From IMG/VR virus record IMGVR_UViG_3300047554_000255, positions 32,001 to 96,000 of that record: a DNA stretch of 64,000 bases; one strand, written 5' to 3'. The position numbers and the translations under genes are program-made. The notes under the pieces were generated by a model. The model did no database searches, was not told the origin of the DNA, and saw only the letters and a program-made list of their open reading frames with translations. Below are positions 8,284-29,388 of this stretch, one piece after another. The first letter of the stretch is position 1, and every line of letters begins with the position of its first letter. Origin of the DNA: a virus.

Positions 8284-8312
8284 AAAAGGGGCCCTTAAAG
8301 CCCCTCTTCTTT
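8282..8312. terminator. bidirectional terminator at the convergence of the two genome arms
   Basis: A6 / AGGGGC-ccttaaa-GCCCCT / CTTCTTTT between the convergent stop codons at 8283 and 8312. Confidence 0.75.
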
Positions 8313-11300
8313 TATCTAACGTTACCCATTCGACCTGAGTAGTAAATTATACGGTTGACGTTATTAACATAAGGTAAGGACTTACTAATCTTTAATAAAG
8401 TTCTCTCACCATCATATTCTAATGTACCCTCTTCATCTGTCTTCTCAACACGAGCAAGATAATATGTTGTTGCTACAACAGCATCTCTTGTTTGATTAAG
8501 AGTAGCTGTTATTGGTACAGCATTCTGTAATAGTTCAGAGAAAGAGAACGGGTTAATATAATATGTTAAGTCACGATTTAATAGAGTAAGCTGATTAAGT
8601 AATATGTTTGCATACTTCTTATCTTCATCGTCCTCATCATCACCTCCAATAGCAAGCTTTAATGCTAAGTAAGTCGCTGCTAGTACTACAATAGCTGCAA
8701 GCTCCATCATCATCTTTCTGATATTTGCAACCTGCATCTTATCTAATCCTTCAACTTCTCCTTTTGTTATAGCATCAATGATCTCTGATATTGATTCCTT
8801 TATTCTTAGACCATCATCGTTTATGAAGTTACCAAAGAATGTTTTATAGTATCCCTCTGTATCTCTCTCTAGTATAGGATCGTGACGCTTAGTCTCAAAA
8901 CGAGTAGCTAATGTTTCAGGCAACCATGATCTAAAGACGAATAAGATACGACCAATGATATTATCTTTACCAGCTAATGACTGAACATCACCAGAGAAAC
9001 CATGAAGCTTCTTTGAGATCTGATTAATCTTTAGCATTGATTTATCATATACTTCATCAAAGGTTTTACCACCATTTGCTTCCATATCCCACTCACCAAA
9101 CTTTTCAGTATCTATGTTAAGATCTTTATCCATGATCTCAAATAGATTAAACTCTCCTTTTGTTGTCTTAACTTTTGTGTTTAACAACATAGCAATAGCC
9201 GTCTGAGATCTAAAGAAATAATCTGTTGACTTCATCAAACTAAATGGACTAGGAATAGCACTCTTGATAGTATCAAGCATACTTCTACCGTTTAATCCTT
9301 TTATTGCATGAGCAAAGGTATTATCTTCTCCTTCAATAGTCTTAGTGTCAAGCATCATACGCAAAATCTTTTCAGACTGCTCTGACTCAATGGTTCCCCA
9401 TGATACATATTTAGCAACAGATGTCTTTAGTATAGAGGTTGCTTTTCTTAGTTGTGCTGAATCAAAGTCTTCTTTACCATAAGCATGTATCTGGTTATTG
9501 ACACCACCAACAGCTAAGTTTCGAACAGCTGAGAATGGGTTTAATGCAATACCTTTCTCTCTTGTAAACTTATTAAAAGCATCAAAGAAGCTACTAATAC
9601 TTAAGTTTCTACCACCAAGTTCATAATAAGCATCTGTCTTTTCTGTTATCTGACGTTCAATACTTTTCCGCTCAGCAGTTGTTAACGAGCGATTGTTCTC
9701 TAACTCTTGTGATAATGCTTCAAGTTCTTTCTCAAGAGCTTTTGCTTGCTTATACTTCTCAGACTTATATGTTCCAAGTGTTAATAACTCAAGTGAGTTG
9801 TAAAAAGGTCTGTCCATTACTCCTTCTGCTTCAGGAGTTATTCTATAGAATGATCTTAGTACAGTACTTTGAACCATCTCTTGTAAGACTTTTGGAGCCT
9901 CACTAACAACAACATCTCCTTTTAAACGTACATTCTTTGTTGAAGAAGTAGCACCTTGAACAATATTGTTGATCGTATCAACAGTATCCTGAACCTCAAT
10001 CTTATGTTTATAGATAAGAGCCATGTCACTGAACAGCTTTGCAATAAGATTTAAGTCTGTACTGCGTTGTTCAACTGGAACGTTCTCGTTTATAAAACGT
10101 GGCGTGAAACCATAACGTGTTACGCCGCTAATAGGATCAGCTTTACCTGCTGTCTTGTAATCGATTGTAGTTAAGTTTTTAAAAAACCACTCATCGATAC
10201 CTTTCATGCCTTCTTTAAGACCAGACAAACCATACTCTTTACTTAATCTTTCTGTTACAACAGGTAAGAAGTTAGACTGCAAAGAGTCAATCTCATCTTG
10301 TGGAAGATAAGACAACTGTTGCTTCATAAAGTCACGGAAGAAAACATAGAACTCATATAAGTCTTTATCTGCTGCAATCCTAGCAAAGTCTTGGTCATAG
10401 TAGTTACTATTAGTACCATTAACTATCTTACGTGGAATCTTGATAGAGTACTTACTGCCTTTTGTTACGGTTGCTCGATCAAACTTTAGCGTACCATTAA
10501 TCAAAGCATTGTATGCTAACGGATCATTGATCTTCTTCCACTCTTCAACTTGCTTCTCTATATACTCTTCGTCAGTACCATCCTCTGGTTGTAATACAAC
10601 AATACCTTTTATAATATCATCTTGCAAACTAATAGAGAATGTTTCTGCATCAGTAAGATACTGAGAGTAACGAGCTCGTGCTTGTTTAACAAAGTCATTT
10701 ATCTCTTCTGCAGTAAAGCCTTGATTCTTAAGATCGTTTATTACATTAAGTCTTTGCTCATCAGTAAAAGCACTTGTGTTAATAAAAGGAGCTGAGTTAA
10801 AAGCAATTGTGTGTTCTTTAACCCATTGGTTATGCTCAGCCCATACAGCAGCAACAACTTCTTTGTTATCTTTTGCTGTATCAAGATTCTCTTTTAACTG
10901 ACGGTATCTTCTTTTTATAGACTCATACCACTCCTGAGAGAAACGACCTTTAAATCCAAGAGTTTTGATAGGTTCACCAAAAGGATTCTTAGTCTCTTGC
11001 TGCTTAATAAACAGATCAAACCCGTTCTCTTTGAACAAAGGATTATCCATGATCTTTGCAGTTGCTTCGTCAATCTTTTTGTGATTACGGTTATGCTCTT
11101 TTTCAATACGCATATTAACCTCAGTGATCAACTTAGCTAGGTATCCAACAAGCTTGTTATCAACAGTTGTGATATCACGAGCTTTTGCTTTCCAATAGCT
11201 GACATCTTTCATTGCTTCGATGTCTTTTATTGTAACCTCTTGACCTTCACCAACATTCTTGTTGATTGCTTTTAGTATCTCGTTCTTTGCAAAGTAAGCA

Positions 11301-12133
11301 ATACGATTGTTAAAAGACTGAGCTGCATCATTAATCTCTATTAGAGTATCCCTAGTAGTAAAAGTACCATCTGAATCAGCAGGTACCTCCATGATGTTTG
11401 GAATATTAAACAAACGTTCCATGTTTGTCCAGGTCTTTATAATATCATCAGCAAGTAATAACTCACTTAATGATACAACAGAACCAGACAACATCTCTTT
11501 TATTGTTTGGATATCAGCTAAACCTTGAGCAACAACAATCTTAATGCTGTTCTCTTTTTGTAATGTATCTATCTGAGTCTCAAGACGTTTGATCAAAGCA
11601 TTATAATACTTTTCACGCTCAATCTTCTGCTCTTTTGAATACTCTTTGTTTAGCTTAGCTCTTTCTCTTGCATCAACATGTTGCTTGATACGATCTTTTA
11701 ACTCATCACGCATCAACTTAACTGTTGGAAGCAATCCTTTTATAGACTTAACTCTTCGTGAAGATAACTTAACATCTAATGGATGAGTGAACTCAATGAA
11801 GTCAAAGATAGAACGAGTAAGTCCATCCTTTGTAATAGTATAATCAGCATTAATCTTTGGCTCTTCTACCCACTGACCATACCATGACTGGAACTTTGGT
11901 GTGTACAACGTAAGATAAATACCTAAAGCTTGCTCACTAGGATCAGTAGTATTCTTTATGTACTTACCTACATGCTTTTGCAACGAAGCATTGATGTTTC
12001 CACCATGCTCCGCTGGAAGACCTTTAGTCTCAATCCCAGATAATATATCGTAATAAGCAGTTGATACTGTCTTCCCATCAGGTAGACGCACATCTGTGAT
12101 TAAGTTATTCTTTCTTTTAATAAGGCAAGCCAT
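8312..12133 (-). CDS. giant virion ejection/cargo protein (third of the crAss giant trio)
   Basis: 1273 aa, directly downstream of the vRNAP gene. It has an N-terminal YTPKFQSWYGQW polyvalent-protein-like motif and a C-terminal hydrophobic helix LAAIVVLAATYLALKLAI followed by DDEDDED. The only Cys is residue 3. Confidence 0.75.
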   Translation of the reverse strand: MACLIKRKNNLITDVRLPDGKTVSTAYYDILSGIETKGLPAEHGGNINASLQKHVGKYIKNTTDPSEQALGIYLTLYTPKFQSWYGQWVEEPKINADYTITKDGLTRSIFDFIEFTHPLDVKLSSRRVKSIKGLLPTVKLMRDELKDRIKQHVDARERAKLNKEYSKEQKIEREKYYNALIKRLETQIDTLQKENSIKIVVAQGLADIQTIKEMLSGSVVSLSELLLADDIIKTWTNMERLFNIPNIMEVPADSDGTFTTRDTLIEINDAAQSFNNRIAYFAKNEILKAINKNVGEGQEVTIKDIEAMKDVSYWKAKARDITTVDNKLVGYLAKLITEVNMRIEKEHNRNHKKIDEATAKIMDNPLFKENGFDLFIKQQETKNPFGEPIKTLGFKGRFSQEWYESIKRRYRQLKENLDTAKDNKEVVAAVWAEHNQWVKEHTIAFNSAPFINTSAFTDEQRLNVINDLKNQGFTAEEINDFVKQARARYSQYLTDAETFSISLQDDIIKGIVVLQPEDGTDEEYIEKQVEEWKKINDPLAYNALINGTLKFDRATVTKGSKYSIKIPRKIVNGTNSNYYDQDFARIAADKDLYEFYVFFRDFMKQQLSYLPQDEIDSLQSNFLPVVTERLSKEYGLSGLKEGMKGIDEWFFKNLTTIDYKTAGKADPISGVTRYGFTPRFINENVPVEQRSTDLNLIAKLFSDMALIYKHKIEVQDTVDTINNIVQGATSSTKNVRLKGDVVVSEAPKVLQEMVQSTVLRSFYRITPEAEGVMDRPFYNSLELLTLGTYKSEKYKQAKALEKELEALSQELENNRSLTTAERKSIERQITEKTDAYYELGGRNLSISSFFDAFNKFTREKGIALNPFSAVRNLAVGGVNNQIHAYGKEDFDSAQLRKATSILKTSVAKYVSWGTIESEQSEKILRMMLDTKTIEGEDNTFAHAIKGLNGRSMLDTIKSAIPSPFSLMKSTDYFFRSQTAIAMLLNTKVKTTKGEFNLFEIMDKDLNIDTEKFGEWDMEANGGKTFDEVYDKSMLKINQISKKLHGFSGDVQSLAGKDNIIGRILFVFRSWLPETLATRFETKRHDPILERDTEGYYKTFFGNFINDDGLRIKESISEIIDAITKGEVEGLDKMQVANIRKMMMELAAIVVLAATYLALKLAIGGDDEDDEDKKYANILLNQLTLLNRDLTYYINPFSFSELLQNAVPITATLNQTRDAVVATTYYLARVEKTDEEGTLEYDGERTLLKISKSLPYVNNVNRIIYYSGRMGNVR

Positions 12134-12135
12134 AC

Positions 12136-15100
12136 TTATTTACATTGATTGTTTAAAGAGTAGTCACTAAGATTATCTGTCGCTGCACTAAACAAGGTTG
12201 TTTGACCTGTAGTATCTGTACTGTCTTCAGTCTTTGTATCAACAACACTAAGCAAGTTAGTAATATTTTTTATACCTTGATCTAATACTGAGTCAGTTTT
12301 TACATCCATACCTAATGCTTTTGTTAAAGCTTGAAGTAAACGCTTTAATATATCAGCAAACTTAAACGTCACTGTCTTCTTTGATGAGTCAACAGAAACT
12401 CCATTCATAAACTCCTGGAACTTCTTATCAGTCATTAACATACTAACAAACTCATGTTCGCTTGTTAAGCCGTAGTACATGCTCTTCTCGTCTTCTGTAA
12501 GAGTGTTAGCATCACTATCTTCAAACACAGAGTTAGAAACTTTTGCAATAACAGCCTTTAGTTTTTCAGCATGCTCTGGATTTGATAATAAAGACTCTCT
12601 TGTTAATAGATATAACTGCTTAATAGAAGCTGCATACATACGCTCTTCTTTAATCTTATAAGCAGAAGCCTTACCACTTAACTTGAACAATGACTGAGCT
12701 GTATATCCATGTAATAACTCATGAACAATAGCATCCTCAAGATTTTCACTTCTTGACTTAGCACTGTTACTTTGTAGTACAAGATCAGGATTAATCACAA
12801 TCTGATTAGTTACTGTATTGTATATCGCAGGATCAGAGATAGTATTTAACAATACAACTGATATTTTATTCACATCACCAGTAAACTTAAGTGAGTCAAT
12901 CAATACTTTGTAGAACTCATTAGATGTATTAGCTCTTACCTTTGTTAGAACAGAAGCAAGTGTATTAACACCTTCAGCATCAGGAATATAATCTTCTATT
13001 ACAGAAGTATCAGATGCTATTGGAGATCCGTTAGAAGCATTTGTATCTTCACCACTTAAGAATATCTCAGGATCAGAAGGCATATCAGCAAAACTAAACA
13101 AGTCCATACTAGCAACTACAACATCATCATCCATCTGAGGAATAAATGTATCCTCAGCAAATAAATCAGTAGGCTCTTGTGTAGGGATAGCTTCTCCGTA
13201 TTCTAGCTTAATATTATTAAACTGACCAATCTCAGAAGCTTTATATCCTTTTGCTTCAAGATAGTTCTTTACAAGAGTATTGATACCTTCTGCTTTACTG
13301 TATAATACAACAGATGCTTTTGCTTTTATAATACTCTCAAGCATTGGAACATATAGATCCTCAAACATTGGAGATAACTTATCAATAGCTTCGTTTCTTG
13401 TAATATGGTTAAGCTTAGCATCAGGTGATAATACCTCAATGAATCGCTCACCAGATACAAGAACTACATCTTTATCAGTATACTCACCTGTATTAATGTT
13501 TCCTTTATAACGTGATGATAAAATATTATGCTTGTTCGTAGGATTGTTAGCATCATAAGGGAATGATACTGCCGTAGTTGCATAATTAGATAACTCAATC
13601 TCATCAACAACAAGACTAGTATTACCTGCAAACCCAATAAATGGATTGGTATCAGCTGTAATAATCTTCTCAAGCTTCTGACTTGGTAACAAGTTACTAA
13701 AGTCAACAGAGCGCATTGTTGCTGGATTAACACCTAACTGATATTCATATGCTGAGTTGTTTCCTAGTGTTTGTATTCTCTTGTATGAGTTTTCTCCAAT
13801 ACGTTTAAATAATAGTATTTGACTATTAACATAGTAACGCAAGAACTTAGGGAATGTTGGTACTGTATTCTTATAACCTTCAAGCGACTGGAAAGAACTG
13901 TTTATAAGCAAATGAGTCATGTTTTTTGGTAAAGTATAAATACTTTCTCCTCTTGAATCTTTTGTTACAGTATTTGCATTTGTCAACGCTTTATATGCAT
14001 CCTTATCAATATAAGAAGCCATATCAGGATTATTCATGATATACTGCTCATAGAAGTTATCAACGTTTTGTCTAAACGTGTCATAGAACTTACCAATGAA
14101 ATCTGTGTGCTGCTTATTAAGCAATCTTACTTCAATAGGAATGTATCTAAAGAACGAAGCTTTATCTGCAACAGATCCACTAACAAACGCATACTTGATT
14201 AAGTCTTTACCAATACTTGCTATCTCAGGATCTTCGTTTAGCATTAAGTCTAAGAAGCCTTTATTGTTTGCAAGCTCGTCAATGTCTTGACTAAATGGAG
14301 ACTTATACTCTACTGATTTAATACTTAATCTTGTTTTACCTGCTGGTATAACGGGTTTTAATCTAGCAAAGAAGTAGTTGTTCTTTAACTCTGGATACTT
14401 GATGTTTAAGGCAAGAATACGCTCAGCTAAAGAAGGATTTTGTTCTGTACCAACAAGAAGTCTATATCTCTCTTCTTCCATATCACCAGTAATAAAACCA
14501 GCTTCTGGGCTACTGTAGATATATGCTTTCAAGTTGCTAAGAACATCTTCAGCTAAAGCATTAAACTTAATTCGACCATAGTTGTCAACACCACCTTTGC
14601 CCTTGTTCTTTTGAGTAACGATCTCTTCTAATAAGTTCTGGAATACTGTATCAAAGTGAATAGGAGATACCTTACTTAATACCTTATATGCTAAGAAGAT
14701 ACTATTCTTCACAGCATGACCAGTCTGAGTAGTTGGTGTAAAGTCAACGCTTTCACTAATTGGATCAGTCTCAAACTTACCAAAGATAGTATCGATGTTT
14801 AATAATCTATCAACAACTACAGGATCTCTTTTTAATGGCTTAATAACAACAGGTAAGCCTTCGCCGTATTGAGTATCAGCAGCTTTTGCAATACTCTGGA
14901 ACTTACGATACTTACTTAGTAAAGTAAACAAGTTAGATCCAATACCTTGACTAATAACGTTACTGTTATTTAATAATGTTGATTGAGGTGTGCTGTAAGC
15001 ATGTAGTGTCTCATAGTAAGTAAGAATAGATAACTGCTTCATGATAAACTCATCAAGTGCTTTTCTATCTTCTGGCTTAAAGTTGATATCTGCTGGCGAA

Positions 15101-18100
15101 TAAGCAAGCATGAGTTGATTCAACTTAGGTCGCAGTACTACTTCCTCTTTTAAAAGATCAAGAAGCTCTTTCGGATTAAGTACTGGCATAGCACCAATAT
15201 TCTCTTCTGTTGCAAGCTCTTTCGCATTTGGACTTAATAGATTAATAAAATGTCTCTTAACATCAGCAATGATCTCAGATGTATACTTCTTTTGTCCAAT
15301 AGCAAAACTATCTTTTGATATCTCTTCTTGTTCGTTAAGATACTTAACAATAAACTGAGGGAAGAAACGTGTTACGTAACGTAAGTCAGCAATCTCACCA
15401 CTGTTAGAACTTAATGACATAAGTAACTTAGCTGGCGCCATTGAGGCACTATTCAAGTTAAATACGTTAAGGTTCTTATTCTTTGCGTTGTCTAATGATT
15501 CGTTAAGAGTAGCAGAAGCATTCTGAGTCTTTGATCTTGTTAATGTCTTACCCGTAGCATCGCTCTTAAATGTAGTATTACCTTCTGCAGTTAGATAGCT
15601 AAGATTTACAATCTCACCGCTATCTTTCTTAATGTTAATACCAGCAGAAAAACCAACAGTCTTTTTGTCTTGATGTTCAGCAAGGAATGATAATAGCTGA
15701 GCAAAGATACCTGTACCTAGTTTACCACTTCTATTATCTAAGAACGTATTAATCTGAGTATTGTAATCAAACGGTAAGAAGTTAACTGGTAATGTTGCAA
15801 TACCTTCTTTATAGAATAACTCTTTCTCATCGTTGTAATCAGACAAGTCAATAGATGACGTAATCTTATCAAACGTTGTTGGGTGAGTAAGTACTGACCA
15901 GTGTATATCTTTATACATCTCAAACAACTGCTCTTCTGATAAAGACTTTGGATCAAAGTTTTTAAAATCGCTAATAGACGACTCGTAAGCAACTGGCTCA
16001 ATAGATTCAATCTGTGACTTCTGTGCTTTTATCTTATCGTTTATAGCAGTTAACTCAGCAGCTCTTTGACTCTTGATCTTATACTTTGTTTGATTAAGCT
16101 TCTTACGCTCCGTACCATTAGCTACTTCATTATAAACAGCAGATCTCTTCTCATACAAACCATCAAGAATACGTTGCTTTTGCTCACGCTCTTTCTCACC
16201 TAGATTCTTATAACCTAAACGAGCTCTATACTTTTCAATACTTTCATTAAGCTTTGCGATCTCGAACTGTTGCTCACTATTAAGAAGCTTTGCTAAATCA
16301 CCATCTACTTTTTCTAACTCTTCTTTGTACTTGTTCTTTATAGCTTCTTTCTCTTTTGTAAGCTCATCTATTAACTTAGATGCAGAATCCTTGTAAGTAT
16401 ACTTAGGATTAGATAGATATGCGTATAACTTATCAACGTCAAAGTCAGAACCCATTTGTGCTGTAATACCATCAGGAACAATAATAGTGTTCTCCATATA
16501 TGATGGTAAGAAACCAGCAACTTCAATAGGAAGCATTGATGAGTGTAGCTGATTTGGAATACGTGCACCAATAAGTTGTAATAACTTTCTTGGAATACGT
16601 GTACTATCAAGAATCAATCTACCGTTCTCATCTTTTGTAGCAAAATCTTTTATGTTTATAAGCTTTCCGTTCTCATCCTTTAAGAACTGAGACATGAATA
16701 CTTGTGCTGCTTGTACTTCACCTTTCTTTACCTTCCCACCTTTAGCTACAGTATCAGCTTCTTTTCTGATATACTGTAATCCTTTTGATGCATCATACAC
16801 TTCTGTATAAACAATCTCACTCTTTAGCTTATCAGATAACTCACCCTCTTTAATCTTTGTACCAACTGCAGATACTTGTACTAATGATGTACCAGTAAGC
16901 TTTAGCTTCACTACTTTACTAAAGATAGATGTAAGTAATCCTTCGAACTTAGAGCTGTTTGATAATAGATATACAGGTATAACTAACTTACCGTCTTTGT
17001 TTGTTGCAATAGAACGGATATCGTTTATACTTAAGTTACGAGAAACTGCTTCTTCTTTTAATAAGTTAGCAAGACTTCTCTCACTCTTGAAAGAAACATA
17101 CTCATCAGTTATTGAAACACCTATTCTATCAAGAAGCTCTTCAGCATTGCCTTCAAATAAAGCAACACGAATCTGTTCTTTCAATCCTTTTAACTGAGCT
17201 GCAGTAAGTTTCTTACCTGCAAACATAAAGTCAAGAACATTATCAAGACCTTCGAATAACTGACGGTCCATCTGACTAACAACGTTAATCATCTCTTTTT
17301 GATGAGGAATCTCTTGTTGTGTACGAAGACCTTCTCTTGAAAGAGTCTGCACGTTAGAAGAGAACTCAGCTTCAGATGGCTCAATAAAGTTACCATTATC
17401 ATCAAACACTTCTAGTGTCGATATTGGAGCACCTGTTTTTGTTGCCGTCTTAAATGCAGCAGAACCAACGTTGTTTTTCTCCATGAATACACGAAGCTTA
17501 TCCATCTCTGAATCGCGTGTGTTATCTGGAATAAGAGGATATGCTGAAGACTTAACGTAGTTAATCTCATTAAAACCATCAGTCTCAGAGTTAGAAGAGT
17601 GTACAGGCTTTGTTGGCTGTAATACAAAACCTAACTCAATATCAGATAAAGAGTAATCAAAGGTTTTCTTCTTACGAGCTTCTGCTATCTTATCAGAAAT
17701 ACTCTCATAAATATCTAAAGGTATTCTACCCTCAGACATCATACGATTAATATGCTCTTGTAATGTAACAAACTCCTGAGCATCCGTTGTTTCAATCTTG
17801 CTAAACTGATCGTTAGACTTAATCACGTCTTTTAACGTAATCATCTTGTATAAAGATACATCAACAATCTTTCCCTTTGTGCTTTGCCAAGTTGTGGTAC
17901 CCTGAGAACCAGGAGCAATAAACATAGCAGCACGTTTTGAGAACTCATCAACTGTACTTAGTACTGTACCGTTAAGAACATCGTTTATAATATTACGTTT
18001 GCTCTGCTCTTCTGGTGTCATCTCAGTTGATACATTGTATGACAATAACTGATTAACAGTCATTGACTCACCAAATACCTCTTTGATTTGATCAGCACTA

Positions 18101-20625
18101 ACAAGCTTTGATTCTTTATAGAACAAAGCCATATCAGCACCTAATACTTGAGTAGTATTGATTTGAGCTCTAAGAACATTATACTTTAAATCTGCAATAG
18201 CAAAGATCGCTTTACTTGAATCTTGTAGCTGTGAAAGCTGATTCATGTAAACATTATTAAAGAAAGGAAAGTAATAAGATGTCTGCACTCTATTTGTCGC
18301 TGGATCAATACTAGTTGGTCCTTTTGATATAATGTTTTTACGCAACAAGTTAGACAACTCTTTTATAACGTCATCTTTTATTGACTCACCAATAAGATCT
18401 TTTAAGTATTGAGCATCTTCTATAGATGGTTCAACTCCTTGATAGATCTTTGTTCTGATCATGTTAAGCTTTGCATCAGAACGATTGTTTAATACTGGGA
18501 ATAAAAAGAACATCTTACTAGCTGTTTCAAAGTTAGCAATGTTCAGCTTTTCTTTCTTAGTATAGTTAGCATACGCAATCATACGATCTATCTCAGCTTT
18601 TGCTAGATCATATAACTTATTCTTGAATGCGTCTTTAAACTGGAATGAATCTCTAACGGTTGGCTTAGTCTTGAAGAAAGCAAAATCAGTTGATGGATCA
18701 AGACTATCTTTTGTTATCTGTATTACCGGAGCAGTTGTCTTATCCGATAAAGTAAACATATTATAGTAACCAGTCTTAGCAAAGTTATTCTGATGCTTTA
18801 AATATGTATCAAGAATCAACTCTCTTGGCGATTGGTTCTTCTTAACCTTACCAATCTCTCCTTTCTTATCTTCTTTTATACTATCTGAATACGATATTGC
18901 ATAAACAAATGATTCGTTATCAGTCTTCTCGTCTTCAAGCAAACGTCTAACTACTTCTGAACTTTTACTATAAGCTCTTTTACTTAATACCTCTAAGAAA
19001 CTCTTTGTCTTTAGCTTCTTCTTTACTGTTTCTAAGTAAGAAGGTTGTACATAAGCATAGATGTTTTTGTTCTCACCATTCTGATAGCTACCAGTTTGAT
19101 AGATATCTGAGTGTAGATCATAGTAAAGACTTGCAAGTATATTAAATACACGCTCGTGAACAATAGGGTTGTTCTTGTCTTCGTAGTTTGCTGACTCAGT
19201 TGTTGTATCAATATCAGCTGTTAACGTATTAAGAATATTATCAACAACATTACCTGTTGCAAGTAAATCAGAGAAGCTCTTTGCTTTAAAGGTTTTGAAC
19301 TTGTTTGCTTTTAATGCTGCTCCAACATGTTTCATGTAAGCATCATCAACAGGAATATTCATTGAAGTAAGTAACTCTTTAAAGAACTCTTGTTTCTTTG
19401 TTAAGTTATTACCAGATCTAATCTCTAAGTACTTCTCTTTCAATGACTTAGCTAACTCAGTGTTTATAACTAAGTTGCCAAACTTATTCTTGTTAACAAG
19501 CTTTGATACTTTTTGTAACTCTAACCAATCGTTTTTTATTTGTCTAACAACACTATTACGATTAGAGCTAATAACCTTAACACTTACACCACCTTCTTTA
19601 ACTTTCTCCCAAAGCAACATAGTATGATCTGTGTATGCTTTGTTTATTACAGTAAGTACTTCGTTTAGTAACTGAACATTCTTTGATGCTTGTAACTCAC
19701 CTAACTTCTTGTGAACGTTTAATAGGTATGGCTTAACTTGAGCTTTCTCTAAAATAGCTTCTTGTAAAGACTCATAAGTAACATGTTGTAATCCTGCACC
19801 TAATACAAGTAAGTCTTCAAATACTTGATCGTAAGGCACGAAATCAGCAAGACCTAATAGATTAGCCTTGTCACTCTTAATACTTGAAAATAACAGCTTT
19901 ACACGAGTCGTAGCTGTATCCTTTGGGTTCATCTGGAATGAACGTGAATCAGAAAAGCTTTCATTTACAGAAGGGTCTTCAACATCAACATCGTCTTCAC
20001 CAAATAACTCACCTGCATCAGCAAGTAAGCTCTCATAATATTCGTTTGTTAAACCAAAGTCTTGGATCTCGTTTTCAGATGTAACCTTTAGTCCTAAACG
20101 ATTAAGCTTAATGATAACTTGCTCTGTGAACTTATCGAAGTTCTCATCATCAGTAACGTTATCTAGCAACTCTCCAAGATAAGAGAATTCCTTGTAGTTA
20201 AGAATACCAAGCTCAGGTATCTTAGAAAGCATATCTTCTGTTGCTGATTCTTTTAAAGCATTATATGCTTCTTCTGAAGTAGCAATATTCTCAGTAAAGT
20301 ACTTAACCTTTAAAGCTGTGTTCTTTAACTTACTCTTTATATCAGCAAATAAAACACGAGATGATTTCTCATACGTACCACCTGGCTTTAACAAACCAAG
20401 CTCATCAACGAACTGTGAAAAGATCGCGTTCGTTATTGACTGCTCTTGTACAAGATTAAATAAGTTGATGTTAACAAAGCGATCTTCAACAGCTTGTTTT
20501 ACAAGATCTAATAATTGTTCATCAGACAAACCTTCATTACCTGGTAGAGTAGCAGCACTCTTTAGAATCTGCTTAACCTCTACTTCTGAAAACTCTGATC
20601 CGCTAATGTTATATAAACATGCCAT
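12136..20625 (-). CDS. virion RNA polymerase (crAss/phi14:2 gp66-type, double-psi barrel) with C-terminal zincin metalloprotease domain
   Basis: 2829 aa. ARIPNQ...QMGSDFDVDKL catalytic motif (D1394, nt 16432-16446). HELLH (H2635, nt 12709-12723) with a downstream EHEF. Confidence 0.9.
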   Translation of the reverse strand: MACLYNISGSEFSEVEVKQILKSAATLPGNEGLSDEQLLDLVKQAVEDRFVNINLFNLVQEQSITNAIFSQFVDELGLLKPGGTYEKSSRVLFADIKSKLKNTALKVKYFTENIATSEEAYNALKESATEDMLSKIPELGILNYKEFSYLGELLDNVTDDENFDKFTEQVIIKLNRLGLKVTSENEIQDFGLTNEYYESLLADAGELFGEDDVDVEDPSVNESFSDSRSFQMNPKDTATTRVKLLFSSIKSDKANLLGLADFVPYDQVFEDLLVLGAGLQHVTYESLQEAILEKAQVKPYLLNVHKKLGELQASKNVQLLNEVLTVINKAYTDHTMLLWEKVKEGGVSVKVISSNRNSVVRQIKNDWLELQKVSKLVNKNKFGNLVINTELAKSLKEKYLEIRSGNNLTKKQEFFKELLTSMNIPVDDAYMKHVGAALKANKFKTFKAKSFSDLLATGNVVDNILNTLTADIDTTTESANYEDKNNPIVHERVFNILASLYYDLHSDIYQTGSYQNGENKNIYAYVQPSYLETVKKKLKTKSFLEVLSKRAYSKSSEVVRRLLEDEKTDNESFVYAISYSDSIKEDKKGEIGKVKKNQSPRELILDTYLKHQNNFAKTGYYNMFTLSDKTTAPVIQITKDSLDPSTDFAFFKTKPTVRDSFQFKDAFKNKLYDLAKAEIDRMIAYANYTKKEKLNIANFETASKMFFLFPVLNNRSDAKLNMIRTKIYQGVEPSIEDAQYLKDLIGESIKDDVIKELSNLLRKNIISKGPTSIDPATNRVQTSYYFPFFNNVYMNQLSQLQDSSKAIFAIADLKYNVLRAQINTTQVLGADMALFYKESKLVSADQIKEVFGESMTVNQLLSYNVSTEMTPEEQSKRNIINDVLNGTVLSTVDEFSKRAAMFIAPGSQGTTTWQSTKGKIVDVSLYKMITLKDVIKSNDQFSKIETTDAQEFVTLQEHINRMMSEGRIPLDIYESISDKIAEARKKKTFDYSLSDIELGFVLQPTKPVHSSNSETDGFNEINYVKSSAYPLIPDNTRDSEMDKLRVFMEKNNVGSAAFKTATKTGAPISTLEVFDDNGNFIEPSEAEFSSNVQTLSREGLRTQQEIPHQKEMINVVSQMDRQLFEGLDNVLDFMFAGKKLTAAQLKGLKEQIRVALFEGNAEELLDRIGVSITDEYVSFKSERSLANLLKEEAVSRNLSINDIRSIATNKDGKLVIPVYLLSNSSKFEGLLTSIFSKVVKLKLTGTSLVQVSAVGTKIKEGELSDKLKSEIVYTEVYDASKGLQYIRKEADTVAKGGKVKKGEVQAAQVFMSQFLKDENGKLINIKDFATKDENGRLILDSTRIPRKLLQLIGARIPNQLHSSMLPIEVAGFLPSYMENTIIVPDGITAQMGSDFDVDKLYAYLSNPKYTYKDSASKLIDELTKEKEAIKNKYKEELEKVDGDLAKLLNSEQQFEIAKLNESIEKYRARLGYKNLGEKEREQKQRILDGLYEKRSAVYNEVANGTERKKLNQTKYKIKSQRAAELTAINDKIKAQKSQIESIEPVAYESSISDFKNFDPKSLSEEQLFEMYKDIHWSVLTHPTTFDKITSSIDLSDYNDEKELFYKEGIATLPVNFLPFDYNTQINTFLDNRSGKLGTGIFAQLLSFLAEHQDKKTVGFSAGINIKKDSGEIVNLSYLTAEGNTTFKSDATGKTLTRSKTQNASATLNESLDNAKNKNLNVFNLNSASMAPAKLLMSLSSNSGEIADLRYVTRFFPQFIVKYLNEQEEISKDSFAIGQKKYTSEIIADVKRHFINLLSPNAKELATEENIGAMPVLNPKELLDLLKEEVVLRPKLNQLMLAYSPADINFKPEDRKALDEFIMKQLSILTYYETLHAYSTPQSTLLNNSNVISQGIGSNLFTLLSKYRKFQSIAKAADTQYGEGLPVVIKPLKRDPVVVDRLLNIDTIFGKFETDPISESVDFTPTTQTGHAVKNSIFLAYKVLSKVSPIHFDTVFQNLLEEIVTQKNKGKGGVDNYGRIKFNALAEDVLSNLKAYIYSSPEAGFITGDMEEERYRLLVGTEQNPSLAERILALNIKYPELKNNYFFARLKPVIPAGKTRLSIKSVEYKSPFSQDIDELANNKGFLDLMLNEDPEIASIGKDLIKYAFVSGSVADKASFFRYIPIEVRLLNKQHTDFIGKFYDTFRQNVDNFYEQYIMNNPDMASYIDKDAYKALTNANTVTKDSRGESIYTLPKNMTHLLINSSFQSLEGYKNTVPTFPKFLRYYVNSQILLFKRIGENSYKRIQTLGNNSAYEYQLGVNPATMRSVDFSNLLPSQKLEKIITADTNPFIGFAGNTSLVVDEIELSNYATTAVSFPYDANNPTNKHNILSSRYKGNINTGEYTDKDVVLVSGERFIEVLSPDAKLNHITRNEAIDKLSPMFEDLYVPMLESIIKAKASVVLYSKAEGINTLVKNYLEAKGYKASEIGQFNNIKLEYGEAIPTQEPTDLFAEDTFIPQMDDDVVVASMDLFSFADMPSDPEIFLSGEDTNASNGSPIASDTSVIEDYIPDAEGVNTLASVLTKVRANTSNEFYKVLIDSLKFTGDVNKISVVLLNTISDPAIYNTVTNQIVINPDLVLQSNSAKSRSENLEDAIVHELLHGYTAQSLFKLSGKASAYKIKEERMYAASIKQLYLLTRESLLSNPEHAEKLKAVIAKVSNSVFEDSDANTLTEDEKSMYYGLTSEHEFVSMLMTDKKFQEFMNGVSVDSSKKTVTFKFADILKRLLQALTKALGMDVKTDSVLDQGIKNITNLLSVVDTKTEDSTDTTGQTTLFSAATDNLSDYSLNNQCK

Positions 20626-20626
20626 A

Positions 20627-23600
20627 TTAGTTACACTTCTTGTTAAGTTTATTCTCGTTCTCTAGTTTCTTAGTAGTAGTTGCTATTGACTTCAACTCAT
20701 CATCGTTACCTTTGATTAGATCTTTGTTAACTGTTTGGTTAGTACCAAACTGTTGTCCAAAGTCCATATCCATGAACTTAGCCAATGCTTCTTCTTGAGA
20801 TAAAGGTGCTTGTGATTTAGATGTATCCGTTACATTAATATACGCAGAATCATTGACTTTAGCCTCCTCTTCAGCAATTAACATAGTGTATCTTGCATCA
20901 ATCTCTTTTGCTTTTTCTTCGTAGTATTTTACTTGCTCAGGTAATGCATTAATTGCTTCTTCTGCAGTATCATACTCATCAATAGTAGAACCATCTGTAT
21001 CATCAATAATCTCATTACCATTAAGAACTGGTTTACGAACCAACTCTAGTTCTTTTGCTTGCTTTTCTTTTAACTTACTAATAGCATCAGATGTAGATAA
21101 AGTAGGAGCTATAGGAGCAGGAGCTTTTGGTGCAACTTCAGGTTTAGTACCTGATGATGGAGTCTCTGAATCTATATTACCAAATACAACAACAGGGTTA
21201 GAGAAGTGTACTAACTCATCAGCATCTGTATTAGCTTCATCGTAAGGACGTCCTTCTTCTAATGTAGTCTCAAGTGTTTGTAACATATATTCGTTATACG
21301 TCATAGGCTGTGATTGCTCTAAAGCACCAGTATCAGGATTGATAGTAAGATCAGTCATTAACTTATCATTACCAATACCTGCTGATTGCTCAGTACCAAA
21401 GCGTATACTGTATCTTAAGTTTGCTGCAATATCGTAAAACTTATTGATTTTTTCTTCTGATATCTCATCTAAGTTTCCGATAATAAGACTATCTTTCTTC
21501 TTATCACCTGTGTTTACTTGCCATATTGATAAGTATCCTTTTGGTGTAATGTTAAAGTGAACCTTACCTTGACTTATTGGATTGTATGCTTTTGAGCTAG
21601 TATGAGTAATATAATCATTAACATACTTGCTTAAACGTGCAAAGTCAGCAGTCTCTCCGTCAATAAACTCAATACCATAAGCTTTGTACACAGCTTGGAT
21701 AATAGCAAGATCACTATCTTTACCATTCTTTCCTGCTGCTACATCAACGTTATAGTTATGAAACGCTCTCCATGAACCAAGAATAAAATCAATATGTCCG
21801 TCTTTTAATACAGGAACTGTAACAAGAGAAGCAAGACGCTTACCTGTTGGAGTTGGTATTATAGCAACTGGCCATCCATTAGCTTTACCGTCAGTAATAA
21901 TGTTTGGTACATAAAGATTACTCTCAGAGTACTTATCAGTAACATGTACTTTACCTTGCTTGATAATAGCAACTTGAGTATTCTTACTTAAAGCTTGCTT
22001 CAATGGTTTCTTTGAACCGTCAGTTCTTAGTACACCAACTGACTTTGCTATTACAGTACTTGTAAATACAGTTGCTTTATCTTTATTAAAGCCGTTGAAC
22101 AATGCTTTTCTATGATCAAGAATAGCTTGACGTTGAATAGCAAGGTTATCAATAACGGTACCGTCAGGTGTAACAATACGTTCTTTTGTGTGAGCTAATA
22201 CTCCTGAGTCAGAATATCTAGCTGTAACAAACTTAACTGTTGGTAAGTATCCAAGCTTTATCTTTTTACCATTATGCATAGTATAGATAGCAACTGGGAA
22301 GTCATCAATAGCTTCTTGTTTTATTTTACCGTCAGCATCAAAGAAGTCTTCTTTCTTACGCTTTGTGATACCAGTTTGTTGAACGTAATCATAATCATCA
22401 AAGTCAGCAATGTTAGAATCAATCTCAAACATTAAAGGAGTACCTTCTTGTATACGAGATGTTCCTAAGATTAATGGATAAGACTCATTACCGTCAGTAC
22501 GCTTTAATCTACGTACACCTTTTTTATCTGTATATACTACAAAGTTATCAGATGCATTGTTAATCTTTGATCCAGAGTTGATTGGAGTTCTTGAATCTTC
22601 CTCAACAGATGTATCAGGATTTGTACCATCAACATAATCAATATCAACATTATCCGTAGTATACTCAAGAGCATCAAGATCAACATCTTCTTCTTGAGCT
22701 TCTTTTGCTTTCTGTACTTCTTTCTTCTGAGCTTCAGTAACCGTAGCTACTGGAGTGACCATTGTTTTTGCTTTTGGATTAGAAGATACAGTAATAGCAT
22801 TGTTTGTAAGGAAATCAGCTAACTGCTTATCTGTAAGCTCATACTCTGATTCATTACCATGTTGTACCCAAACTCTATCTTTACCAACAGAAACAATTTT
22901 GACTACTATCTCTGAACCATCAGTTGGTACTATATAATTACCAAGAACAAACTTAACTCCGTTTACTTCAAGACTATTGTTAGGATTAGCTTCATATTCT
23001 TCTTGCTCAGGATCAAGTTGTTCTTCATCAACAACTACTGGAGTCTCAGTTGGAGCTTCAGCAACTACTGGAGGTTGTTCAACTTGAACAGCTTCTTCTG
23101 GAGTTACTGGTACTGGTTGATCTTCAGTTGATACTTCTAGTGTTGGTTCAACCTCTGTAGGCTCTGCTACTTCAGTTGGAATATTATTAGATGACTTAGC
23201 ACCTGTATAAGTAAACTCAACATCAGTGTAGTTCTCTTTTGAAGGATGAGCAATATTAAACGCTATATCTTTATTATTAACACCGTAGTTTAAAAGAATC
23301 TCTCTACCTTTTGTGCTAAATCCAACAAAAGCAGCAGGGTTCATAACCCCCATACCCTCTTCAGATATCTCTAGTTGTGACTTAATTACTTGGATATAAC
23401 CTTCTTTTAAATCTGCAAGAAGAGCTTCAACATTTATAGTTCCTCCTTCTGGTGCATTTGCTGCATCTTCAACATCTTCTGTTAAGTCAGATGTATCAGC
23501 ATCAGTAACGTTCTCTCCATCTTCTGGTGCTACAGCTCCTGTAAGAGCATCTGTAAATGATTTAGTAGCCTCATCCTTTGCTTCTTTTGCTAACTGCTCT

Positions 23601-26296
23601 TGTACTACTTTCTTTGCAGCCTTCATACGATTAGCTAAAGCAACAATACTTGTTGGATCTGCTAGGAAGTTATAAGCATTAAGATGTTCTTCAGAGTCAT
23701 TGTTTAACTGGATGTACTCTAATAGATCTTCGTAAGTCTCATCAATATCTGTATTAGATAAAAGAGCAGTGTTTAAACCAGCTTCTTCAGTCTTATAGTT
23801 AATGAATCTCTTGTAAGCATCTTTTGCATAACGTTGCTCACGCTTAGACATGTTAGTCTCATCGCGATTAGATAACTTCTCCCATGAGTCTAACCACTTT
23901 GCAATAGCTTGTAGTTGACGCTCTTTATACTTAAGAGTTTGTGCCTCTTCAGGAGTACGCTTCTTTACTTGTTTAAGGTTGTCTATCTCCTTTATAAGAA
24001 GATCCATCTCACCAAGCATCTTAGCTTGAGAACCTAATACTTTATATGCAGCAGAAGCGGCTCCTCCAAGGTTAGGATTAGCAGCAGCTCTTGTGTATAA
24101 GTTATTTGCTCTTTCAATAGCAGACTTTGCTTTGAATGAGTTTGTTGCAAGCATCTCAATATAATCATCAAGAACACTCTTTAACATCTGAGCATCTTTC
24201 TGACCTTGACTACCTTCAGCGTATAAATCTGGTTGGATTAAATCGCCATACTTTTCGTTTAACGTTTCCCATGTTTTGTTAAACGTTTCAACATCATCAG
24301 CAATCTTGTTAAAGTATTCCTTAACAGACTTAGCACTATCAACTGTTGGATCTAAGCCGTATGCTTCTTTTGCATCCTCAACACTAAATGATTCTCCTTG
24401 ACCTCTAATAGTATCAATCAAAGCAGAAACCATACCTGCTTTCTTTGCAGCTGAAACAGCTTTTGCAAATGCAGTATCTCTTGAGTTGTAGTAAGTATAC
24501 TTATCTTTATTACCAACAGCTTCCTGCATTGTAGCAGCAGCCTTATTTTGAACCTTAAAGTTTGCTATCTCATCTTTTAATACAGCATAAGGATTCTTGT
24601 AGAACTCGTTTATCGCAGCAACAGTAGCAGCCTTATCTTTCTTTATCTCTTCTCTCTGCTTATCAGTGGTCATCATACGTTCTTGTACTTTGCCCATTGT
24701 AAAGTTGATTGGAGATAATAATCGACCAGTAACAGCACCCATCAAGAATGTCTTCATTCCTTGAGTATCTGCTAATGGATTCTGAACACTACTCATGATA
24801 GCATCAGTCTTACCAGAGTATCCTTTCTTACCATGATATAAGTCATAGTAATAATCCTGAAGACCCTTGTTAGAACCTTCTTGGAATAACTCTTGTAAAC
24901 CTTCTGATGTCTCCCACTTGAATAAGTTCTTTCCAAGAAACTTACTTACTTGCCATGCTGCTTCCTTTTTACCAAAGTCAGTAGCAATCTCTTTTGCTGC
25001 ACCAAGAGCTCCTAATGAACCAACTTGATATACTTTAGTCAGTTCTTTATCAGCAACCTTACCTGATACCTTTAATACGTCATCAGCATATTGTCCAACA
25101 TTCTTGAATAATCTACGCTCAGCATTAAAGTGACCAAGCATGTTATCAAACTGGAATCTATTAAGAGCAAATAGCATACCAAAGTTAACGTTGAAGTTAT
25201 CTGAGGATGCATCTTTTGATACTCTATCAATACGCTCTAAATCTTCACCAACTGGTAACTCACCTGTTCTTTCAAGATGCTGTTCTGTTAAACGATCTTT
25301 AAGTTCTTTGTATGTACCAGCTGCTTCAAAAATGGCTTCTGAGCGAGCCATGTTAGCTTCACTTAACGTTCTTCTAAACCCACCAAAGGTTAACGCTGCA
25401 ATCTGAGCAGCACCTGCACCATTCTTACCAGCAACAACTGCTTTCTCAATAGCGTTTGTAGTAGATCCAATAGGATTAAACTTCTGGAAACCTTTCCATA
25501 TAGTCTTTGCTAATCCTTCTTGTTTATAAATATCTCCAAGTGATTTGTTTAATCTTGCAAACTCTTCAACGTCTTGAAGCTTATCAACCCCTTTCATGAA
25601 TCGCATTCCAAGCTTTGTAGCTGAGAATAAACTAGATGCACCAAAGGTTAATAACTCTTCTGATAAAGCTTGAGCAATCGCACCAACTGCAAAACCTGAG
25701 TTCTGAACAAGATCACCAAAGAATTGCTTGTTAAACACAGACTTCTCTGAATCAGCACTTCTAAAGATAGCGTACTTATTCATTACATCTTCTTGCATCT
25801 TTGCCATCTGATACATCTCTGTTTCATCTGGTTGTAGCTTTGATGCATCAAAAGAAGTCATTGCATCAGCAAGTCTTCCCCAACCTTTCCATCCTTCAAG
25901 GAATGTATTAGAAGCTAGACGACCTGCACCTGCAAAAGCATTACCCATTGTATCACCCCAAGTTTGTCTTGACGCATACAACTCTTCATTATTTCTTCTA
26001 GGATCAAAACCGAGCTCAGCAGAGTATGATGAGTTAGTATATCTATCTAACTGTGTCTGCTCAGGATTAAAGTTTATTGGCTGCATTTGAGTGGACAAAG
26101 AAGGTCCACCTGCCAATGCTCCTGATAAAAAAGAAGCCGTAGGATCAGCAGTAGATGAGCTAACTAGTTGTTGTGCTTGTTCTTGACCACGTTGCTCAAA
26201 AGGATCGATAAAATCTAACAGCTTTGGCTCTAAGTCTGGTGTTTTAATATCAGGACCTCCAAGGCTATTATTGAGCGAGTTTAATATAGACTCCAT
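20627..26296 (-). CDS. giant virion ejection/cargo protein (first of the giant trio)
   Basis: 1889 aa. Gly/Ala-rich hydrophobic N-terminal segments, an EGLQELFQE motif and acidic Pro/Glu linkers. The only Cys is residue 1888. Confidence 0.75.
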   Translation of the reverse strand: MESILNSLNNSLGGPDIKTPDLEPKLLDFIDPFEQRGQEQAQQLVSSSTADPTASFLSGALAGGPSLSTQMQPINFNPEQTQLDRYTNSSYSAELGFDPRRNNEELYASRQTWGDTMGNAFAGAGRLASNTFLEGWKGWGRLADAMTSFDASKLQPDETEMYQMAKMQEDVMNKYAIFRSADSEKSVFNKQFFGDLVQNSGFAVGAIAQALSEELLTFGASSLFSATKLGMRFMKGVDKLQDVEEFARLNKSLGDIYKQEGLAKTIWKGFQKFNPIGSTTNAIEKAVVAGKNGAGAAQIAALTFGGFRRTLSEANMARSEAIFEAAGTYKELKDRLTEQHLERTGELPVGEDLERIDRVSKDASSDNFNVNFGMLFALNRFQFDNMLGHFNAERRLFKNVGQYADDVLKVSGKVADKELTKVYQVGSLGALGAAKEIATDFGKKEAAWQVSKFLGKNLFKWETSEGLQELFQEGSNKGLQDYYYDLYHGKKGYSGKTDAIMSSVQNPLADTQGMKTFLMGAVTGRLLSPINFTMGKVQERMMTTDKQREEIKKDKAATVAAINEFYKNPYAVLKDEIANFKVQNKAAATMQEAVGNKDKYTYYNSRDTAFAKAVSAAKKAGMVSALIDTIRGQGESFSVEDAKEAYGLDPTVDSAKSVKEYFNKIADDVETFNKTWETLNEKYGDLIQPDLYAEGSQGQKDAQMLKSVLDDYIEMLATNSFKAKSAIERANNLYTRAAANPNLGGAASAAYKVLGSQAKMLGEMDLLIKEIDNLKQVKKRTPEEAQTLKYKERQLQAIAKWLDSWEKLSNRDETNMSKREQRYAKDAYKRFINYKTEEAGLNTALLSNTDIDETYEDLLEYIQLNNDSEEHLNAYNFLADPTSIVALANRMKAAKKVVQEQLAKEAKDEATKSFTDALTGAVAPEDGENVTDADTSDLTEDVEDAANAPEGGTINVEALLADLKEGYIQVIKSQLEISEEGMGVMNPAAFVGFSTKGREILLNYGVNNKDIAFNIAHPSKENYTDVEFTYTGAKSSNNIPTEVAEPTEVEPTLEVSTEDQPVPVTPEEAVQVEQPPVVAEAPTETPVVVDEEQLDPEQEEYEANPNNSLEVNGVKFVLGNYIVPTDGSEIVVKIVSVGKDRVWVQHGNESEYELTDKQLADFLTNNAITVSSNPKAKTMVTPVATVTEAQKKEVQKAKEAQEEDVDLDALEYTTDNVDIDYVDGTNPDTSVEEDSRTPINSGSKINNASDNFVVYTDKKGVRRLKRTDGNESYPLILGTSRIQEGTPLMFEIDSNIADFDDYDYVQQTGITKRKKEDFFDADGKIKQEAIDDFPVAIYTMHNGKKIKLGYLPTVKFVTARYSDSGVLAHTKERIVTPDGTVIDNLAIQRQAILDHRKALFNGFNKDKATVFTSTVIAKSVGVLRTDGSKKPLKQALSKNTQVAIIKQGKVHVTDKYSESNLYVPNIITDGKANGWPVAIIPTPTGKRLASLVTVPVLKDGHIDFILGSWRAFHNYNVDVAAGKNGKDSDLAIIQAVYKAYGIEFIDGETADFARLSKYVNDYITHTSSKAYNPISQGKVHFNITPKGYLSIWQVNTGDKKKDSLIIGNLDEISEEKINKFYDIAANLRYSIRFGTEQSAGIGNDKLMTDLTINPDTGALEQSQPMTYNEYMLQTLETTLEEGRPYDEANTDADELVHFSNPVVVFGNIDSETPSSGTKPEVAPKAPAPIAPTLSTSDAISKLKEKQAKELELVRKPVLNGNEIIDDTDGSTIDEYDTAEEAINALPEQVKYYEEKAKEIDARYTMLIAEEEAKVNDSAYINVTDTSKSQAPLSQEEALAKFMDMDFGQQFGTNQTVNKDLIKGNDDELKSIATTTKKLENENKLNKKCN

Positions 26297-29200: not shown

Positions 29201-29332
29201 TTGATTAAAGCCTTGCTCATACATAGCTGACCTCCGTTGTAACAACGTGCCTATTGCTCCAAAGTCTGGAGTAAATAAAGGAAGAGGAGCTATTGCGTTA
29301 TTCCCTGAAGGATATGGATTTACTGATGCCAT
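26300..29332 (-). CDS. virion cargo/ejection protein
   Basis: 1010 aa with a coiled-coil N-half and no Cys. It lies between the cargo genes and the giant trio, as in crAss-like phages. Confidence 0.65.
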   Translation of the reverse strand: MASVNPYPSGNNAIAPLPLFTPDFGAIGTLLQRRSAMYEQGFNQIKAANDSIVNAPLTNQNNEVLRTQYLQQAQQRLKDISSMDLSEGRNVDEAQSVFAPFWQDKFMLKDMAYTKQAQSEISKAFAARDSTDEKIRATYSDTAIQYIQNGLDPLRTANRTEEDFAKVQQRRFIRAQNIAGDMEKLRKEYGFEIQTVDASGPQIVTTTNGVKSLQSYKNFMQANWKPEYDDYLRMEMTVAHERSVKEKMNQFGVSEIEAKQMIGKDYLADTRKTYESGKVELTANIAGIDSQLEELKKTKVTPNNSAALMQKYRELEEAKKQYGKQISDYDERLTDIDKNYDSNLRGVTANGPVYFTQYGKMKKINDIANALASNIKQDVKKNDAFFATDDLRVKLEDLDLKKAQFEFTKAVARGEYPFSGTGKAILGVGPDGSPQISFGGGSNNATLNGQDTTPEGKGKTQFDTPMVTGINTQAQITKANAYEVYVDNVTKQRYSAYNSIFSAIEKDADLQGILPTDFVKSLRAADGVTPASAKTKYKDEVFTKLKEKGIIPADAKYDYASGPTRVVNAITSWMYNKYSEKYKSGKATDNELDIYNELEQSRDAINEWGLQSKEQKDLVNKALANDKYAPIRTGTPGNYKVLDPSTLTSIASKKYSISSKEISTKDLVSMLYSGDGVVKYDIPWSDKAGNYHSGRQYVVSKSTGEEYNVSGYISKFKDDYDFAKLAPLYKSVQSEIVPNAKYYIDRLGKVGMVTTYTSDGKRDTLDKGQLLVTEALAGSNFEQADGNGGVANIDALVQLGADREKVITFFNTTARDGGNALGRVDYTTIGKNGNPSVIIGYKQELLKEESKSGSGILDEKSIAAIGRLGIEVNLANGIKLKNAPSVQEAGYISKVLTQGEILKSNQMDEVGGFKYILKQNSTGDGVMIKIDQKNLRQEVGPDGKTIIAGENEFVEGSWQNISYAQMAPEELYQYIQKQKIENYKRLRDFRIAAAPKQQSNVTLGDLLNNQ

Positions 29333-29334
29333 AG

Positions 29335-29350
29335 TACATTAATAATATAC
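29335..29350 (-). promoter_or_regulatory. putative phage late promoter GTATATTATTAATGTA
   Basis: Variant of the motif repeated in - strand intergenic regions (see findings). Confidence 0.6.
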
Positions 29351-29388
29351 ACAAAAATATGTTAAGTTTAAACTTAAACTTATTGGGT

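Follow-up and report, generated by a model that had tools for sequence, protein, structure and literature searches.

The delivery of the virion RNA polymerase of crassviruses, the most abundant phages of the human gut, is an open question, and one viral locus raises it in a particular form. The locus lies within a stretch of 64,000 nucleotides (the window), which comprises positions 32,001 to 96,000 of the IMG/VR virus record IMGVR_UViG_3300047554_000255, a record of 111 kb that is estimated to be 91% complete. Three consecutive genes on the minus strand of the window encode giant proteins of 1889, 2829 and 1273 amino acids, the middle one being a crAss-type virion RNA polymerase, as judged by its matches. 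Together these proteins contain only four cysteines in 5,991 residues, all of them at the two junctions where the end of one protein faces the start of the next. Why would such proteins retain cysteines only there? Across related loci, facing terminal cysteines accompany the division of this giant protein into separate genes and are missing where the same parts are fused. Sequence comparison and analogy with one solved structure place slightly on the probable side the reading that head-to-tail disulfides re-join a split polyprotein in the virion.

The first chain member (20627-26296) has its sole cysteine at the penultimate residue 1888 (codon 20633-20635) and none at its N-terminus. The middle member, the polymerase (12136-20625), contains only Cys3 (codon 20617-20619) and Cys2828 (codon 12142-12144), and the last member (8312-12133) has a single cysteine at residue 3 (codon 12125-12127) and none at its C-terminus. 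Junction 1 (20614-20635) reads Cys-Asn-stop, one nucleotide, Met-Ala-Cys-Leu, and junction 2 (12122-12144) reads Cys-Lys-stop, two nucleotides, Met-Ala-Cys-Leu. A preliminary description of this DNA had reported the four cysteines at the two junctions and their absence from the 1010- and 1048-residue proteins encoded upstream; translation confirmed every detail, and re-reading of the sequence reproduced its junction DNA exactly, including the spacers of 1 and 2 nucleotides. At the cysteine content of the other open reading frames (ORFs) of the window (1.25%), approximately 75 cysteines would be expected in the three proteins instead of four (Poisson P about 3e-27), and the probability that each of the four facing termini would by chance have one of the four cysteines within 3 residues is about 1.5e-12. 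The trio has no internal cysteine, in keeping with the near-absence of this residue from Cys-free ejection proteins.

The assignment of the 2829-residue protein as a virion RNA polymerase is supported by its match to PHROG 16227 (E 3e-48) and by tblastn matches to phi14:2 g066, Flavobacterium FpV phages, crAss002 and others, with 24-31% identity in the polymerase core. It carries the DFDVD catalytic motif of two-barrel RNA polymerases at residues 1394-1398 (16432-16446, minus strand) and, approximately 190 residues before junction 2, a zincin-type HELLH motif at residues 2635-2639 (12709-12723, minus strand), whose H2635, E2636 and H2639 are invariant in two alignments of relatives (A1 and A2). 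The locus thus has the composition of a Crassvirales cargo module: a DFDxD two-barrel polymerase inside a giant protein, giant partners on its flanks, cargo and tail genes upstream, and a zincin HExxH within the block. By homology to phi14:2 and crAss001, the trio is most likely packed and injected by the window phage. In many relatives junction 2 follows the invariant HExxH motif by 180-320 residues, and this motif may belong to a protease proposed to process fused polyproteins. A Pfam search returned no match across any of the three giant proteins. Among the polymerase homologues, which reach 4,900 amino acids, many hold inserted helicase-type domains (PF13604, PF13245), and some hold DUF1768 (YbiA-like), AlkB-like or RNase H domains.

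The arrangement of the cysteines is preserved in distant relatives. In phi14:2, the sole cysteine of g067 (1797 residues) is its last residue, g066 (2180 residues) has only Cys3 and Cys2179, and g065 (1421 residues) has only Cys3. In FpV20, where the first two proteins are fused, gp33 (4419 residues) contains Cys4418 only, and gp34 (1596 residues) has Cys3 and one internal cysteine. In crAss001, gp47 (2341 residues) contains only Cys2339, the third residue from the end; gp50 (2412 residues) has Cys5, a cysteine ninth from the end and one internal cysteine; and gp49 (1349 residues) has only Cys5. The rule is also kept in crAss002, cr107_1, cr111_1, cr8_1 and cr50_1, within Intestiviridae, Steigviridae and Suoliviridae. 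Nearly all of 120 polymerase homologues (28-100% identity) have cysteines only at residues 3-5 and/or among the last three, some of them with the N-terminal cysteine only, the C-terminal one only, or none. Cys3 and Cys2828 are invariant in an alignment of 23 polymerase homologues, and for the flanking proteins the terminal cysteine is the sole invariant column over long regions: the last 400 residues of the first protein (23 diverse orthologues) and the N-terminal 600 residues of the last protein (30 diverse segments).

A wider tabulation gives the same picture. Plus-strand ORFs of at least 400 amino acids were tabulated for 79 related viral loci, and each junction was scored for a tail cysteine among the final 15 residues of the upstream protein and a head cysteine among the first 7 of the downstream one. 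Among 144 adjacent junctions in 74 non-redundant loci, 67 had both cysteines, 74 had neither and 3 were discordant; one of these (L043) reflects a miscalled start and is in fact concordant. In the seeming exceptions (L007, L010, L012, L015 and L016), the sole cysteine lies 7-15 residues before the C-terminus. Of the 205 cysteines in 116 chain proteins (284,479 residues), 137 are terminal, and the internal cysteine frequency is 0.024%. The result can be expressed as a valence rule: first members carry a C-terminal cysteine only, middle members both, last members an N-terminal one only, and fully fused giants none.

The same rule holds in a larger family. A profile search with the N-terminal half of the last protein returned 1,038 proteins, and among the best 150 representatives of these a cysteine occurs at positions 2-7 in 100 of 108 stand-alone last members and at position 8 in one more, the other seven being fragments or carrying extra N-terminal sequence. 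None of these 150 representatives has a C-terminal cysteine, and 31 of the 42 long fused forms among them lack terminal cysteines altogether. Two seemingly Cys-less last proteins (P0132 and P0135) most likely have starts called too far downstream, and the annotated start of crAss002 gp33 (L083, 10899-23636) is probably 32 codons too far upstream, as the start used in cr107_1 gives Met-Ser-Cys and fits the rule. The preliminary description had proposed that cysteine pairs conserved across orthologous trios and lost upon gene fusion would support its reading, and the tabulation bears this out, since the terminal pairs are kept order-wide in split genes only and are missing from fused ones.

Related loci show four architectures: three separate parts, the first two fused, the last two fused, or all fused. 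Fully fused giants of 4,700-7,400 residues have no terminal cysteine, and some of them, such as those of L018, L057, L061, L067 and L071 (4,700-5,200 residues), contain no cysteine at all. Split pairs and fused proteins are collinear through both junction sites, and in the fused forms the junction site is a variable, gapped linker that lacks cysteine. When the split or fused state was mapped on a polymerase-core tree (MAFFT and FastTree), at least 13 changes were counted at junction 1 and at least 11 at junction 2, counts that are a rough minimum because the tree is approximate and unrooted. There were thus many independent transitions between the two states, each with gain or loss of both cysteines. 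In L072 (3854-22411), a break just ahead of the catalytic motif divides the giant ORF into parts of 3167 and 2989 residues without terminal cysteines, and this break looks like a frameshift or assembly error and not a true split. Because the terminal cysteine pairs are conserved and confined to split forms, the order-wide comparison gives good support to the likely arrangement put forward in the preliminary description, in which protein n pairs through its tail with the head of protein n+1; this pairing has a structural precedent in cyanophage A4, described below.

The two window junctions read alike and have spacers of 1-2 nucleotides, which raises the possibility that the cysteine codons are a by-product of a nucleotide signal for translational coupling, or that they arose by chance. 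Several observations make either explanation scarcely credible. Both cysteine codons are used (TGT 55 and TGC 12 in tails; TGT 52 and TGC 15 in heads), the cysteine offset varies from -1 to -15 in tails and from 3 to 6 in heads, and spacers between partner genes range from -8 to +50 nucleotides. Chance must also contend with the placement probability of about 1.5e-12. Moreover, the pairs are retained when the partner genes lie on opposite strands or are separated by inserts of 0.3-5 kb. In crAss001, gp47 is encoded away from gp50 and gp49 and on the other strand, yet all three are Cys-tipped, a gene arrangement that contradicts a translational-coupling signal. Cys-tipped partners are separated by gaps of 265-384 nucleotides in cr107_1 and L084 and by a 5.4-kb insert in L032. 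In L034, an ORF resembling a GIY-YIG endonuclease (recognized by eye, with no domain search) occupies 17494-18162, exactly between a Cys-tailed and a Cys-headed partner, and gene junctions of this kind may be landing sites for mobile elements. Judged from these comparisons, the cysteine pattern acts at the level of the protein and not of the DNA.

Small additional proteins extend the series in some loci. In L084 and L085, a 126-residue ORF with 1-nucleotide spacers lies between the Cys-tailed polymerase protein and the Cys-headed last protein, and its only two cysteines are at residue 3 and at the last residue. In L032, a 238-residue ORF, whose only two cysteines are residue 4 and the penultimate residue, comes immediately after the Cys-tailed first protein, and the Cys-headed polymerase lies 4.7 kb downstream. 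These mini-links leave the numbers of heads and tails equal, as a chain needs. A scan of the coding strand for doubly Cys-tipped ORFs of at least 100 amino acids yielded no further credible one.

The downstream partner opens with a portable, split-specific N-terminal module, as its homology and distribution indicate. In the last member of the window trio this module comprises residues 1-112 (11798-12133, minus strand) and was modelled with AlphaFold2 at a mean predicted local distance difference test score of 84.5; the model shows a beta-hairpin and helices, followed by a disordered linker (residues 115-132) and a helical body. Head modules at junction 1 are homologous to junction-2 heads of other phages, with 53 significant matches of up to 54% identity, all of which begin within the first 6 residues of both modules. 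The module was not found inside polymerase-containing ORFs of the related loci, fused ones included, and profile matches to fused forms start mostly after it. A comparison of the split L048 with the fused L053 showed that the fused protein lacks approximately 16 tail residues and approximately 81 head residues. Searches of Pfam and PHROGs with seven head modules gave nothing above threshold.

On the tail side of junction 1, AlphaFold2 predicted a folded domain in the first protein, followed by a C-terminal 190 residues of low-confidence helices that end in a flexible tip. Across the chain proteins, lysine or arginine directly precedes the tail cysteine in 57% of cases and directly follows it in 52%, compared with a background of 12.8%, and such basic neighbours would favour a reactive thiolate. 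A complex prediction with the C-terminal 270 residues of the polymerase and the N-terminal 220 residues of the last protein, run without controls, returned no answer (score 0.00) and counts neither for nor against the link. The paired thiols might instead bind a metal or take part in other thiol chemistry, for example as a cysteine switch acting on the HExxH zincin near junction 2, and the invariant HExxH about 180-320 residues before this junction in many lineages is in line with such a role. However, the same pair occurs at junction 1 with no protease nearby, each junction offers only two thiols with no conserved histidine or extra cysteine beside them, and a switch needs one cysteine, not a pair, so that this alternative appears very improbable.

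If head-to-tail disulfides do re-join the parts, as the simplest account has it, the three proteins would together represent a giant ejected polyprotein in split form. Once translated, one protein would dock through its C-terminal tail, which is flexible, basic and Cys-tipped, on the small Cys-headed N-terminal module of the next, and in the mature particle the tail and head thiols would oxidise to a disulfide. Two such links would unite the first protein, the RNA polymerase and the last protein into a covalent unit of approximately 6,000 residues, equivalent to the single fused polyprotein of many relatives. This unit could hold its parts at 1:1:1 for packaging. With its links only a few residues away from the chain ends, it would leave the capsid as a single, nearly linear thread, and in the host the cytoplasm would reduce these links, setting the polymerase free. 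A more general version, in which we place less confidence and which remains a tentative proposal, is a modular dock-and-lock. Here, a portable Cys-head and a basic Cys-tail would allow the polyprotein to be split into two, three or four genes, the 126-238-residue links included, and to be re-joined as a redox-cleavable pseudo-polyprotein that is packed in a fixed ratio, threaded in order through the tail and dismantled by the reducing cytoplasm of the host to release the RNA polymerase.

The precedent for such a link is the pre-ejectosome of cyanophage A4 (Anabaena phage A-4L), in which cryo-electron microscopy revealed a disulfide between gp27 Cys1715 and gp26 Cys5 (PNAS 2025, PMC12002296). 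In the A-4L genome, gp27 (1717 residues) has its sole cysteine at the third position from the end and gp26 (1114 residues) has Cys5 as its sole cysteine. As in the window, adjoining genes encode giant ejection proteins, the upstream one with a lone cysteine near its C-terminus and the downstream one with a lone cysteine near its N-terminus; the window junctions likewise fit the pattern of a lone cysteine at the extreme C-terminus of one protein and at residues 3-6 of the next. Unlike the window system, A4 has one link and not two or three, and no RNA polymerase has been identified in its chain. The A4 paper does not mention that these cysteines are the only ones in gp27 and gp26, nor does it generalise to split and fused forms (PMC12002296). 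The preliminary description had been aware of no earlier account of the mechanism; this holds for the crass-wide rule, which was not found in the literature searched, and does not hold for the kind of bond, as one head-to-tail disulfide between ejection proteins is published for A4.

The A4 structure also underlies the main rival explanation, according to which the same disulfides only staple a folded internal core, or pre-ejectosome, in the capsid, stabilising packing and DNA spooling, with no single thread passing through the tail. The A4 bond sits in a folded pentameric ring, where the C-terminal helix of gp27 occupies a cleft of gp26 (PMC12002296), and the RNA polymerase proteins of crAss001 are predicted to be folded and helical and to be stored in the capsid cargo zone (PMC10172136). 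Nevertheless, the position of the cysteines 1-3 residues from the ends in most lineages and the common occurrence of fused forms suit chain continuity better, and the doubly tipped mini-links of 126-238 residues look like chain links. A mere stapling role is therefore considered unlikely, while being the alternative to which most weight is given.

A further possibility is that the terminal thiols bond with other partners, forming homodimers, a cyclised polymerase (Cys3-Cys2828) together with a first-last link, or an attachment to the portal or capsid. Sequence cannot by itself assign partners in three-part systems, and each cargo protein may be present in the particle in several copies, with 6 of each given as an example that fits the cargo-zone volume of crAss001 (PMC10172136). 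On the other hand, a C-terminal or N-terminal cysteine almost never occurs alone (3 of 144 junctions), tail and head cysteines are equal in number in every complete locus, mini-links included, and the A4 structure shows a hetero pair. Cyclisation is impossible in two-part systems because each protein there has one cysteine. Such pairings are accordingly regarded as quite improbable; together with metal binding and the DNA-level explanations, they fit the data poorly.

Several considerations weigh against the preferred reading of a re-joined polyprotein. We infer the bond in crassviruses from sequence, and in three-part systems the first-polymerase and polymerase-last links cannot be separated from other pairings in this way. 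BLASTP of the window proteins against A4 gp26 and gp27 gave nothing below E 0.1, PDB sequences yielded no match to the last-protein profile or to the first protein, and in a Foldseek search of PDB with the model of the N-terminal 600 residues of the last protein the matches were mere noise from large helical proteins, with no chain of A4 among them; with neither sequence nor Foldseek similarity to gp26 and gp27, the precedent is an analogue and not a homologue. Because the cytoplasm of bacteria is reducing, the bond would have to await assembly or a later stage, and the surroundings in which gut phages live are anoxic. The covariation of tail and head motifs may be mere co-inheritance, the raw counts are inflated by relatedness, and the tree used for the transitions is approximate. 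In addition, gut crass polymerases contain more internal cysteines, with 6-15 in cr107_1 and cr8_1.

If the disulfide links exist, they would explain how three giants made as separate proteins are kept together in equal numbers, why these genes can be freely fused and split in evolution, and how the polymerase could be released without a protease. The cysteine rule makes the order and coupling of cargo ejection testable. It also offers a simple sequence signature by which chain members can be annotated and start codons corrected in metagenomic crass genomes, and the naturally occurring tail and head might be put to use as a redox-reversible tool for protein coupling.

The genes surrounding the trio provide further context. 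The two upstream proteins, of 1010 (26300-29332) and 1048 (29389-32535) residues, together span 26300-32535 on the minus strand; both are Cys-free and are not chain members, and by their position they are read as cargo. The 1048-residue protein has an N-terminal stretch resembling L-Ala-D-Glu peptidases (residues 34-114, PHROG 2307), which suggests an ejected protein that cuts the cell wall. Upstream of these cargo genes, a 1183-residue protein (32603-36154, minus strand) has a cysteine as its very last residue and four others; it falls outside the chain rule because the protein after it has no N-terminal cysteine. Further along the minus strand are genes for tail fibres and the tail, and a DNA polymerase is encoded on the opposite strand. 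Three ORFs among the tail genes are rich in cysteine and so differ sharply from the Cys-free cargo: one of 765 residues (49394-51691, minus strand) with 39 cysteines (5.1%), one of 501 residues (47168-48673) with 16 and one of 172 residues (46637-47155) with 10. These may be disulfide-stabilised parts of the particle; a PHROG search gave no match for the 765- and 501-residue proteins. A search of the 111-kb record for thioredoxin found none. Thioredoxin genes are annotated in the gut crass genomes cr111_1 (L088, 27403-27672) and cr8_1 (L089, 27179-27448).

Among the closest known systems are the cargo blocks g067-g066-g065 of phi14:2, where g066 is the protein with a crystal structure, and gp47-gp50-gp49 of crAss001. 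Both are homologous to the window trio and share its order and its cysteine rule, although the polymerase core is only 24-31% identical to that of the window phage. The proteins of the phi14:2 cargo block have been seen in virions by mass spectrometry, as have gp47, gp50 and gp49 of crAss001 (PMC10172136). The preprint on the phi14:2 polymerase does not mention its cysteines or links among the three proteins (10.1101/2020.03.07.982082). The crAss001 study places gp47, gp49 and gp50 in the capsid cargo zone with no mention of their cysteines, reports structural disulfides in the tail and portal vertex of the virion, and includes mass spectra of reduced and non-reduced virions (PMC10172136). Split inteins and trans-splicing were also considered and rejected. 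An N-intein of about 100 residues would begin with Cys, and a C-intein would end in Asn with Cys, Ser or Thr after it; the cysteines here instead occupy residue 3 and a site 1-3 residues before the C-terminus, neither the three proteins nor the head modules have Pfam matches, and the fused forms have no cysteine at the site.

More distant parallels help to delimit what is specific to crassviruses. The virion RNA polymerases of Schitoviridae (N4 gp50 and DEV gp71, about 3,400-3,500 residues) have a T7-like fold, different from that of the window polymerase. They resemble it in being giant ejected polymerases with near-total avoidance of cysteine, and differ in being single chains without terminal cysteines. 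The statement in the preliminary description that N4-type polymerases are Cys-free is backed by the documented avoidance of cysteine in these polymerases and ejection proteins (PMC11445570). As far as could be found, a head-to-tail link of this kind is known from one phage; apparently undescribed are the crass-wide rule, chains in which the polymerase is one of two to four members, and both the portable head module and the mini-links. The fused crAss giants are collinear with the window trio and, unlike it, consist of one chain with zero cysteines in which the head module is mostly missing.

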